Origin: a virus
Lineage: Duplodnaviria; Caudoviricetes
Virus record (IMG/VR): IMGVR_UViG_3300035701_000028
Span: 1 to 62,258 of that record
Reading direction: 5' to 3' (one strand)
Length of the DNA: 62,258 nucleotides
Positions within the stretch are counted from its first letter, which is position 1. Every line of letters starts with the position of its first letter. The position numbers and the translations under genes are program-made. Under the pieces are notes generated by a model. The model was not told the DNA's origin, searched no databases, and was given only the letters and a program-made list of their open reading frames with translations. Shown here one piece after another: positions 55,709 to 57,215 of the stretch.

Positions 55709-55743
55709 AAAAAGGGCATCCCCCACACGATGCGGGGGATGCC
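55709..55743 (-). terminator. Intrinsic terminator
   Basis: GGCAUCCCCCGC-AUCGU-GUGGGGGAUGCC followed by C-UUUUU. Confidence 0.8.
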
Positions 55744-55756
55744 TGGGCCAGGGAAT

Positions 55757-56027
55757 AGGATTTCCGAACGACAGCCACGCCCTAGAAGATTCCTGTCAAG
55801 AGAGGAAAAGTCGGGTTGATCGCGGGTTTGATGCAGCCCTATCCTTTGTCCTCTAAGCGTTCGGGAAGAAAATCGTTGACCCCTGAGCGATGAACTTCTT
55901 CGCCATGGACGCTACTAGGTCACACAAGGCGACAAAGCAGCAGTAGGGATAACCATCCCAAAGTGTAGTTGTACCTTATCGCGGGTACGGGCGTCTTGAC
56001 TTCTCTCCTATCGTCGCCGAAAATCCT
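55757..56027 (-). ncRNA. Candidate ~270-nt structured ncRNA downstream of the DIP1984-like gene
   Basis: No long ORF; 15-bp closing helix 56013-56027/55757-55772, 7-bp inner helix, two hairpins, terminator immediately after. Confidence 0.65.
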
Positions 56028-56035
56028 CTACGCCA

Positions 56036-56584
56036 TTATACGCTGATCTGGGTCGTCGCATTCTTCAGCGATAGCAGGCCGTCCAAAAGACCCAGCGTTT
56101 CCTCCAGAGCCTCACGCTCTTCGGCCAGCTTCTTCTCGTCAATGTTGACGATGACATCGCTCGGCTTGGACTCCCCGATCTGGGCCGACGCCTGAGCAAC
56201 CGCGAAGCCCTTGGACTTCGCCTCCGCGCGGATCAGGTTCAGACGCTTGACCAATCCCTCCAGGAATCCCTGGTAGACCGGAGCGACCTCACGCCGCCAC
56301 GTCAGCCACTCCGCAATAGTGCGGGTCGTCCCCCTGATATCCAGCATCACGTCAGCGTTCGCGGACTGGATCGCCTGACGCAGAAGAATCTTGCGCTCGA
56401 ACAGATCACCAAGCGCCTGCCGCTCTTTCTTCAGGACACTGGCCGAGCCCCCATCCTTCTCCATCGGGTCTTTCAGAGCTTCCTGCCGCGCGATGTAGAG
56501 ATTGATGAACTCGATCTTCTTGACGATCCGCGCGTCGATCGTCTTGAACTCTGCGAGTGCTTCGGTAATCGTTGTCTTAGCCAT
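56036..56584 (-). CDS. DIP1984/DUF6847 (septicolysin-like) coiled-coil protein
   Basis: ITEAL...RQE..DP...LRQAIQSAN...TIAEWL..R...D.KKL...LDGLLSLKNATT pattern recognised by eye. Confidence 0.65.
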   Translation of the reverse strand: MAKTTITEALAEFKTIDARIVKKIEFINLYIARQEALKDPMEKDGGSASVLKKERQALGDLFERKILLRQAIQSANADVMLDIRGTTRTIAEWLTWRREVAPVYQGFLEGLVKRLNLIRAEAKSKGFAVAQASAQIGESKPSDVIVNIDEKKLAEEREALEETLGLLDGLLSLKNATTQISV

Positions 56585-56601
56585 GAAGGGCCTCCTTGGG
56601 C

Positions 56602-56874
56602 CTAGATGTCGAGCGTGCCGATGATCTCGCTGGCACAGCGTTTGGCGTCCTTGACTTGCAAGAGAAGCTGGAGAAGCGACTCCCGCACAGGAGAGATGGG
56701 AGGTCGGGGAGGAACCGGGCTCTCTTTTGGACTATCGGTAATCGGCCCATGAAAAGAGACCGGACTGAGTTTCCTGGCGAGGTCTCCAAGCTGGGACTGA
56801 ACAATCCCGACCTCCGCTGCGATCTCCCCAATGTCGGAGATCGTCTTTGCTTCCTGCGATCCTACTTCACTCAT
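56602..56874 (-). CDS. Small helical hypothetical protein
   Basis: AGGAGG RBS. Confidence 0.65.
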   Translation of the reverse strand: MSEVGSQEAKTISDIGEIAAEVGIVQSQLGDLARKLSPVSFHGPITDSPKESPVPPRPPISPVRESLLQLLLQVKDAKRCASEIIGTLDI

Positions 56875-56884
56875 GATGAGCCTC

Positions 56885-57163
56885 CTAGTTAGGTCTGAAT
56901 TTCATCTTGGCTTCAGTACGCGGTACGGCAATCTTCCCCACAGGCATTCCGGGCTGGAACATGATGACGAGAGCATATCGGTAGGTCGGGACACCCTCCG
57001 GATCATTCTCGGTCAAAGGACGAGGAGCCATAGCGAACCCTGACAACCCATAGCTCCCCGACTGCGTTTGCATGATCTCACCCATGACGGTCATGAGTTC
57101 CTGAGCCGAGTCCCCTTCGACGATGTTGAGTCCTTCCTGCAATTGGTTCTTGGTCTCCTCCAT
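56885..57163 (-). CDS. Hypothetical protein
   Basis: AGGAGG RBS after the promoter. Confidence 0.65.
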   Translation of the reverse strand: MEETKNQLQEGLNIVEGDSAQELMTVMGEIMQTQSGSYGLSGFAMAPRPLTENDPEGVPTYRYALVIMFQPGMPVGKIAVPRTEAKMKFRPN

Positions 57164-57186
57164 ATCACGCCTCCTGTTAGATCATC

Positions 57187-57215
57187 ATCCTACATCAAGA
57201 TTACTGACTTGTCAA
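57187..57215 (-). promoter_or_regulatory. Promoter of the DIP1984-ncRNA operon
   Basis: TTGACA-17bp-TAGGAT. Confidence 0.75.

Follow-up and report, generated by a model that had tools for sequence, protein, structure and literature searches.

A conserved, doubly pseudoknotted phage RNA with a heptad array, coupled to one protein family and frequently linked to tRNA genes

The virus contig IMGVR_UViG_3300035701_000028 (62,258 bases, completeness estimate 97%), referred to below in its full length as the window, contains on its minus strand a gene for a protein of 182 amino acids (aa) at 56036-56584, followed by a 292-base stretch (56035-55744) without a convincing gene. The question raised by this locus is what such a gap encodes, and what relation it has to the protein next to it. 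An initial annotation, made from the sequence alone, had proposed a protein gene with a dedicated non-coding RNA downstream, arranged in a self-contained operon and possibly similar to type III toxin-antitoxin (TA) systems. The comparative analysis described here confirmed the observation and supports its core, a protein with its own downstream non-coding RNA; on the contrary, the operon and the type III likeness were not sustained, and a link with tRNA genes had gone unnoticed. The RNA encoded by the gap belongs to a large and as yet uncatalogued family of phage RNAs with an intricate fold.

Fold and distribution of the RNA

The minimum-free-energy fold of the gap, calculated with the terminator-like hairpin that follows it included, had a value of −131.5 kcal/mol (z = −4.22), and 0/100 shuffled sequences were as stable. 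Both helices singled out in the initial annotation, a closing helix (56027-56013 with 55772-55757) and a helix formed by GUCAAGA and UCUUGAC, were present in the sequence and were recovered in this fold.

Related loci were gathered via the protein, 74 from viral contigs and 8 from metagenome-assembled genomes (MAGs), with proteins 31-56% identical to that of the window. The DNA located 3′ of the stop codons was similar in 226 locus pairs (E ≤ 1e-3) and contained a pair of conserved, mutually complementary end motifs. When a profile was made of the 3′ part, a downstream match was obtained in 75 of 81 stretches; the profile itself had been built from 29 of these stretches. Then, a covariance model restricted to the 3′ core (R1; 122 positions, 22 pairs, 55 sequences) matched 73 of the 82 protein-defined loci, 54 of them in the seed and 19 outside it, in addition to the window (55855-55754, 40.8 bits, E = 7.5e-06), which is itself in the seed. 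The matches occurred once per locus and every time on the strand of the gene, and all five whole MAG genomes (5/5) gave a single match each, at the known locus. The nine R1-negative loci were either shortened (L024, L030, L054, L070) or encoded the most divergent proteins (L064-L066, L082, L083).

The RNA was found downstream of the gene in 71 of the 73 R1-positive loci, and the element began no more than 15 nucleotides (nt) after the stop codon in 43 of the 64 loci in which the 5′ motif was placed. Element length ranged from 250 to 355 nt (57 elements). In the window the element covers positions 55755-56030 of the minus strand, from the 5′ to the 3′ strand of its closing helix P1 plus 2-3 flanking bases. 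A 15-mer scan was also carried out from the RNA side; among the 80 loci listed, 74 had no R1 match and six carried the RNA, all six with the protein gene upstream (five on contigs already known and one on a new contig). Most of the loci listed were chance matches, and the scan is a weak test for RNAs without the protein. Altogether, the RNA is coupled genetically, one to one, with one protein family, and together the RNA and the 182-aa protein constitute a two-component module that passes as a unit between widely differing phages.

The pairing scheme was obtained from a MAFFT alignment (A4) of 28 full-length elements, corresponding to the window and 27 relatives. RNAalifold identified in A4 the helices P1, P3 and P3′ and the hairpins H1 and H2, with compensatory changes in 35 of 39 pairs, and helix P2 was added by eye before pairs were counted. 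Pairing was observed in 89.1% of the cells vs 63.8% in 500 shuffles, and sliding the 3′ partners by 1-3 columns left 39-46% of the cells paired. Two-sided changes affected 37 of the 41 pairs, and 0/500 shuffles came as high, on every measure. In a second MAFFT alignment, of 55 sequences of the 3′ core (A7), the corresponding values were 92.5% paired vs 57.1% in shuffles. P1, P2 and P4 are supported by alignment counts and a permutation test, outside the covariance model. In addition, G-U pairs are frequent on the sense strand, as in the U-G pair at columns 11/337 in 25 of the 28 A4 rows, and this abundance indicates that the fold belongs to the transcript of the gene's strand. The homologues thus carry a conserved downstream non-coding element with covariation, in 73 of 82 loci and over 37 of 41 pairs. 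The gap is a real structured RNA and not a product of chance folding.

The fold comprises the closing helix P1, two pseudoknots (P2 and P4), the helices P3 and P3′, a GNRA hairpin (H1) and a second hairpin (H2). The first ~45 nt pair in turn with segments of the 3′ domain, those of P1 with the 3′ end, those of P2 with the strand past H2 and those of P4 with the H2 loop, and P3/P3′ close a three-way junction bearing H1 and H2. In the window, the P1 5′ strand AGGAUUUUCGGCGAC (56013-56027) lies 9 nt past the stop codon and pairs with the P1 3′ strand GUCGUUCGGAAAUCCU (55757-55772). The compensatory changes of this helix in the relatives were two-sided in 12 of 14 A4 pairs, with 89.8% of the cells paired. 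The P2 5′ strand AGGAGA (56004-56009) pairs with UCUUCU (55789-55784) and crosses P3, forming the first pseudoknot, with two-sided changes in 4 of 5 pairs and 90.7% paired. The second pseudoknot is formed by P4, which joins the segment directly after P2 to the H2 loop: GUCAAGA (55994-56000) pairs with UCUUGAC (55801-55795). This duplex was present in 57/57 elements, with a mean energy of −8.39 kcal/mol for own pairs vs −3.90 kcal/mol for cross pairs (window, −8.4 kcal/mol), and 0/2000 permutations reached the own-pair mean.

Further downstream, positions 55821-55832 contain an invariant AAA, within AUCAAAC, and the P3 5′ strand CCGCG (55825-55821). Columns 243-245 of A4, preceding P3, are A in 28/28 rows and column 247 is C in 28/28, and P3 itself is 99.3% paired, with two-sided changes in 4 of 5 pairs. 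P3′, helix 4 of the family, is formed in the window by CCC (55813-55815) and GGG (55782-55780), in a register read from the sequence, and shows two-sided changes in 4/4 pairs. Hairpin H2 (UUCCU...AGGAA, 55790-55807) has an 8-nt loop that holds the P4 3′ strand, and it covaries in the relatives in 5/5 pairs. The 3′ strands of P2, P3′ and P3 (CGUGG, 55779-55775) follow one another in the segment 55775-55789. The window aligns over P1, P2, P3/P3′, H2 and P4, and it fits the family apart from H1 and from a shift of one base or column that affects its P2 and P3′ in A4, where the pairing was read from the sequence.

This RNA does not correspond to any catalogued family in the searches performed. With Rfam release 15, in which the families tested included GOLLD, ROOL, RNase P, transfer-messenger RNA (tmRNA), Y RNA and 6S, the whole window gave only tRNA at gathering thresholds, and no match was obtained in the gap even at E ≤ 10 (window positions 55400-57400), in line with the initial annotation, which had recognized no tRNA, CRISPR or riboswitch in it. 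A search of 20 loci detected only tRNAs and one tmRNA located elsewhere in L071; 12 loci examined at E ≤ 1 had no match in the element, and the L076 element alone, at E ≤ 10, gave just two chance microRNA matches. No description of the RNA was found in listings and abstracts of the literature on novel structured phage RNAs, DIP1984 and DUF6847, although it may still have appeared in print. The tmRNA of L071 (1-296; RF00023, 78.9 bits) has lost its 5′ end at the locus edge and is found about 2.2 kb upstream of the module, in a 132-kb viral contig.

Heptad array, linker and tRNA genes

The initial annotation had noticed a weak 7-nt periodicity in the central part of the gap. In the family, this region is a conserved single-stranded array in which two sets of four 7-nt repeats flank a spacer of ~8 nt. 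The repeats follow the consensus AAGNUSA, whose A, G and U positions are kept in 24-28 of the 28 A4 rows. Mean same-base autocorrelation was 0.42 at lag 7, 0.37 at lag 14 and 0.33 at lag 21, with values of 0.18-0.32 at the other lags up to 13, and lag 7 was the best among lags 2-12 in 58 of 68 sequences. By a simple periodicity score, which is noisy in G+C-rich loci, the top 7-nt-periodic window of the locus fell 0-450 nt past the stop codon in 45 of 72 loci vs 8.7% expected. The periodicity is therefore a hallmark of the family, but in the window alone it is not above chance, since the best periodic window of this array ranks 1737 of 62180 in the record. The tract of the window, a degenerate copy at 55833-55901 of the minus strand, aligns column for column with the strongly periodic array of the relatives. 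The array was kept in loci where R1 fails (L024, L064-L066, L082, L083), with a motif that drifts where the proteins are most divergent.

A variable linker (55902-55993, minus strand) precedes the array in the window and contains two small hairpins (55988-55971 and 55959-55946) together with other local stems. Both hairpins had been described in the initial annotation, along with a duplicated ACCCGCGAU, and all are present; as the hairpins lie in the variable linker of the family, covariation cannot test them. The two copies of ACCCGCGAU are located at 55986-55978, in a linker hairpin, and at 55827-55819, over the P3 5′ strand (P3a). Judging from the sequence, the first copy could compete for the P3 3′ strand as an alternative pairing; the duplication was not seen as a family feature.

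In the relatives, the linker is the site of a tRNA or of a T-arm-like hairpin. In 20 of the 57 elements, ARAGORN detected a tRNA within this linker (element positions of about 40-135). The anticodons corresponded to Ile (four cases), Arg and Lys (two each), Gln, Glu, Thr, His, Ser, Leu and Val, plus one odd Tyr, and four embedded tRNAs were assigned anticodons of 2 or 4 bases by this program. The T-arm motif was matched in 14 further elements, with two of those matches outside the linker. Embedded tRNA-like sequences with 2- or 4-base ARAGORN anticodons were observed in the linkers of L021, L034, L020 and L075. The linker of L084 resembles by eye a circularly permuted tRNA, with the T arm ahead of the acceptor and D arm.

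Taking elements and flanks together, tRNA genes were found in 34 of 67 non-redundant loci, within the element in 23 and in the flanks in 16, which indicates a frequent physical linkage of the module to tRNA genes. In five loci (L019, L057, L061, L077, L080) a tRNA starts 1-7 nt past the end of the R1 match, a position at which RNase P cleavage would create the 3′ end of the RNA. The window has its own case of this closeness in a tRNA-Tyr gene (GTA; 57216-57301, minus strand; RF00005, 43.9 bits). Large tRNA arrays flank the module in L047 (297-5444, 15 genes), L080 (3387-4079, six genes) and L032 (322-1428, five genes).

Distant homologues of the protein were identified in cultured phages, namely gp236 of Erwinia phage Hena1 (L195, 2501-3139) and p146 of Acinetobacter phage Acj9 (L196, 2339-2905), with an hhalign value of 95.9% against the family. 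In both phages the gene lies inside a tRNA island and is followed by an unannotated gap of 358-418 nt and then by a tRNA array, and the strongest 7-nt-periodic window of each locus falls in that gap. In 62 further records of Acinetobacter phages the Acj9 gap is kept, with 68-77% identity and mostly without annotation. Four Acinetobacter phage sequences share a closing helix of 13 base pairs (bp), one pair of which has changed on both sides in two of the four. R1 gave no match in the Hena1 and Acj9 gaps (best E 0.23), so homology of these gaps to the RNA core is only putative; the protein, the heptad arrays and the closing helix are suggestive of a kinship. Both genes are labelled 'tail fiber protein' in RefSeq and in PHROG 1491, and hypothetical in GenBank records. 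The Acinetobacter T4-like phages also carry beside the module a gene for a 78-aa RF-1-domain protein (peptidyl-tRNA hydrolase/release-factor-like), located directly upstream of the homologue in L197, L198 and L199 (11-247) and past the tRNA array in Acj9 (L196, 4515-4745). No counterpart of this gene was detected in the metagenomic loci by phmmer (E ≤ 0.01).

The partner protein and the organization of the locus

The structure of the partner protein was predicted with AlphaFold2 using 65 relatives, with a mean predicted local distance difference test score (pLDDT) of 96.5 and a predicted template modelling score (pTM) of 0.82. The predicted fold consists of four long helices and, at one end, a small sheet of short strands to which both termini and a central hairpin contribute. 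At least 2079 homologues were found at E ≤ 0.001 among 8000 candidates scored, none of them meaningfully named. The window protein had no Pfam match at E ≤ 0.1 and none in NCBIfam or PADLOC, including any to endoribonucleases of the ToxN/AbiQ kind. It matched PHROG 1491 (phrog_1491, E 4.6e-14), labelled 'tail fiber protein', a label that is doubtful because of the four-helix fold and the setting in tRNA islands. When the PDB was searched by sequence with the family profile, the only matches were to coiled coils and attributable to chance (E 0.06-1).

A likeness to the DIP1984/DUF6847 family had been noted by eye in the initial annotation, and the profile comparisons agree with it weakly. Size and helix pattern are similar, PF20935 was touched by 23 of 65 relatives at E ≤ 1 (best 4.6e-05), and hhalign of the protein family alignment (A3) against three true DUF6847 proteins gave a probability of 13.9% (E 0.002, 87 columns), with motifs that line up. 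A neighbouring ESM Atlas cluster contained 16% DUF6847 members, with template modelling (TM) scores of 0.70/0.74. On the other hand, the window protein falls short of the PF20935 gathering score (27 bits) and, as stated above, lacks any Pfam match, and G001, which encodes a 54%-identical homologue, had no PF20935 match at E ≤ 0.001. The true DUF6847 proteins match PDB entry 3kdq ('uncharacterized conserved protein'), and their loci had neither an R1 match at E ≤ 10 nor a clear heptad array. We regard the protein as a putative remote relative of DUF6847/DIP1984, in a large phage family in which all members are hypothetical.

The order of elements on the minus strand, 5′ of the large terminase gene, is tRNA-Tyr, promoter-like site, 92-aa open reading frame (ORF), 90-aa ORF, 182-aa gene, gap and terminator. 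The two small ORFs (56885-57163 and 56602-56874) and the 182-aa gene are placed as described in the initial annotation. The terminator-like hairpin (55709-55743) begins 13 nt past P1 and is strong, as had been claimed, with a 13-bp stem containing nine G-C pairs and a T run at 55743-55715. As for the promoter assigned to 57187-57215, a site TTGACA-17-TAGGAT with 10 of 12 consensus positions is present, but the promoter scan gave 2 such sites per 4 kb vs 1.6 expected, which leaves it as a consensus match only. The 3′ end of the tRNA-Tyr gene adjoins the −35 hexamer of this site.

The operon is not supported as the unit. The 92-aa and 90-aa ORFs had no noteworthy family matches in Pfam, NCBIfam, PHROG or PADLOC, and their genes had no counterpart in the other loci (blastp, 1e-5); the promoter-like site is outside the conserved part of the module, and the terminator is peculiar to the window, as in most relatives the RNA continues into a gene or a tRNA. 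Clustering of all neighbouring ORFs of at least 50 aa in 69 loci revealed no second conserved gene, the largest cluster beyond the protein and its antisense shadow spanning six loci. These data indicate that the unit is composed of the protein and the RNA.

Elsewhere in the window, genes for a helicase, a DnaB-like helicase and DNA polymerase I are found in the first 19 kb on the plus strand, and the large terminase gene (53083-54612) is part of a long minus-strand block. Downstream of the terminase gene, past two unassigned ORFs of 604 and 447 aa, this block contains a single ORF of 3849 aa (37971-49520), whose sole family match is phrog_9880 (unknown function), over residues 2413-2530.

Possible roles of the module

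Our preferred reading, held with moderate confidence, is that protein and RNA form a self-contained ribonucleoprotein of the phage, with the heptad array being read by the protein. The RNA would be transcribed together with the protein gene and, where tRNAs lie inside it or abut it, would be trimmed by host tRNA-processing enzymes, yielding a stable processed species. The protein, probably oligomeric, would bind the repeated heptads with one repeat per binding surface, and the pseudoknotted core may serve as a scaffold or as a second functional site. As the module is located in or beside tRNA islands, it would most likely act on tRNA supply, on translation or on tRNA-directed host defence during infection.

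Precedents exist for this type of recognition. HutP and TRAP are oligomeric proteins that read spaced NAG/GAG triplets in single-stranded RNA, and the HutP sites consist of two sets of three NAG triplets with four-base spacing, which amounts to a 7-nt period. The array described here likewise presents short purine triplets at fixed spacing in single-stranded RNA, to which the protein would bind by analogy. Unlike HutP and TRAP, the protein has a four-helix fold and no sequence relation to them (Pfam, NCBIfam), and the array is set in a loop of a pseudoknotted scaffold instead of an antiterminator leader. A second parallel is provided by Ro60 and the bacterial Y RNAs (YrlA), in which the RNA has a closing stem and an internal tRNA-like module and is encoded beside its protein partner, sometimes in phages. 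The new RNA resembles them in the closing stem formed by its ends, the internal tRNA module and the adjacent partner gene, and it differs in that there is no match to the Y RNA model, no Ro60/TROVE protein is involved, and the embedded tRNAs are optional and have many anticodons.

Several observations weigh against this reading. Binding of the RNA by the protein, the function of the module and the existence of a discrete RNA species are all inferred, and the co-occurrence of the two parts would also be expected if both served one process without binding. The protein is near neutral (median isoelectric point 7.7, with 36 of 65 above 7), and no known RNA-binding domain was found in it (Pfam, NCBIfam). 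The window itself lacks the GNRA hairpin H1 of the family, has a linker without an embedded tRNA, and contains degenerate heptads (autocorrelation of 0.31 and 0.30 at lags 7 and 14, respectively). The association with tRNAs is frequent without being universal, with 33 of 67 loci lacking a tRNA within the DNA fetched, and the neighbours in the metagenomic loci are mostly genes for DNA replication and recombination rather than translation. Finally, in L052 (1679-1799) and L072 (2320-2440) the RNA core lies upstream of the protein gene, which means that a fixed cis arrangement is not required.

The strongest competing explanation, to which we assign a clearly lower probability, is that the RNA acts alone, as an RNA-only particle or a ribozyme, the protein being a co-expressed helper for its folding or stability or a passenger of the cassette. 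In its two pseudoknots, its GNRA loop and the invariant A's that remain unpaired, the core is more elaborate than a simple protein site would require, and the protein has no RNA-binding signature. RNAs of this kind have been described: in a recent account (10.1101/2024.12.08.627333), GOLLD and ROOL are presented as large ornate RNAs of phages and prophages with many pseudoknots, often near tRNA islands and of unknown function; tRNAs are sometimes found in the linker between the 5′ and 3′ parts of GOLLD, and no protein partner is reported for ROOL. Compared with what is described there, the new RNA is also phage-encoded, pseudoknotted and associated with tRNAs, which occupy the linker in 20 of 57 elements and accompany 34 of 67 loci, inside the element or nearby. 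It differs in having no Rfam match to either family, in its much smaller size (250-355 nt), in its central 7-nt repeat array and in the dedicated protein gene that neighbours it. Against an RNA acting alone stands its one-to-one link to a single family of proteins in phages of very different kinds, for which GOLLD and ROOL offer no parallel. Furthermore, the heptad array outlasts the core as the protein diverges, which fits a protein site better than an RNA-only fold.

A bolder form of the preferred reading, in which the ribonucleoprotein acts directly on tRNAs or on the ribosome, for instance as a minimal catalytic or chaperone particle that matures, protects or sequesters phage tRNAs while the protein reads a 7-nt code, seems to us improbable. 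The topology of the RNA invites comparison with RNase P. In the catalytic domain of RNase P, P1 is followed by P2, and the A-rich J3/4 and the long-range helix P4 cross P2. Similarly, the new RNA has P1, P2 and invariant A's with a long-range P3 that crosses P2, the order of its 3′ part is a hairpin, P2′, the long-range helix′ and P1′, and its genomic setting is among tRNA genes. This likeness concerns topology only. Unlike in RNase P, the U before P3 is not invariant (T in 14, C in 9 and A in 3 of 28 rows), there is no specificity domain, and no score was obtained with the Rfam RNase P models for the gap (E ≤ 10), for 12 loci (E ≤ 1) or for one element (E ≤ 10).

We consider it unlikely that the element acts in cis, as a 3′ untranslated or intercistronic structure setting the stability or translation of its own messenger or of the next gene. 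Such a role would suit the location of P1, which begins a few bases past the stop codon in about two thirds of the loci. It would also suit the P1 3′ strand, which is usually GGAGG in the family and might hide a ribosome-binding site, as well as the 14 of 69 loci with the start of an ORF (40 aa or more) 0-12 nt past P1. However, the starts found in range in 44 of 69 loci are mostly 15-34 nt past P1 and often show a ribosome-binding site of their own, and 25 of 69 loci have none in range. The genes downstream are mutually unrelated, the RNA lies upstream of the protein gene in two loci, and tRNAs are embedded in the element; in the window, P1 lacks the GGAGG and the element ends in a terminator. 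Masking of the ribosome-binding site of the next gene by P1 was set aside as a general rule, given that just 14 of 69 loci have a start 0-12 nt away.

A TA-like or counter-defence pair, in which the RNA neutralizes the protein in the manner of type III systems or the pair decoys a host nuclease, is less likely still. Phages carry mimics of type III antitoxin RNAs, and tRNA islands have been linked to defence against tRNA-cutting nucleases. As in ToxIN and CptIN, a small protein gene adjoins a repeat-bearing RNA, here in a phage accessory-gene setting. The likeness to type III systems raised in the initial annotation nevertheless fails on anatomy. The repeats are of 7 nt vs the ~34-45 nt of type III tandem repeats, with Tandem Repeats Finder reporting nothing in the window gap and in L076 only a 7-nt array of 3.6 copies. 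Besides, the RNA follows the gene instead of preceding it and forms a pseudoknotted scaffold, and the protein is a helical bundle without a match to ToxN-like or other nuclease families (Pfam, PADLOC).

The weakest explanation is a DNA-level site, with the heptads as iterons of a replication origin or as a packaging site bound by the protein and the RNA fold as secondary: replication genes are frequent neighbours, the window element lies upstream of the terminase gene and short direct repeats are typical of origins, but this is very improbable in view of the compensatory changes that hold six helices, the many G-U pairs, each of which would become an A-C mismatch if the opposite strand were folded, the location of the element on the gene's strand every time, and the embedded or abutting tRNAs, which imply transcription through the element.

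Large structured RNAs whose purpose is unknown, such as GOLLD and ROOL, were recognized in phage tRNA islands long ago, and to our knowledge none of these has a protein partner. The module described here is smaller and has one dedicated protein and an obvious candidate binding site in the heptad array. It is also very widespread, with the at least 2079 metagenomic protein homologues mentioned above and phages tied by MAG labels to at least six bacterial phyla. Distant versions are present in cultured phages (Erwinia phage Hena1 and Acinetobacter T4-like phages, the latter with 64 records); there the gene bears the label 'tail fiber protein', and the RNA has no annotation. These features open the role of such RNAs to experiment. 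If the protein does read 7-nt repeats, the module would represent a new RNA-recognition principle on a DUF6847-like fold and would provide the first functional hint for DUF6847/DIP1984. If, in addition, the ribonucleoprotein acted on tRNAs or on the ribosome, phage tRNA islands would own a dedicated RNA enzyme or scaffold.

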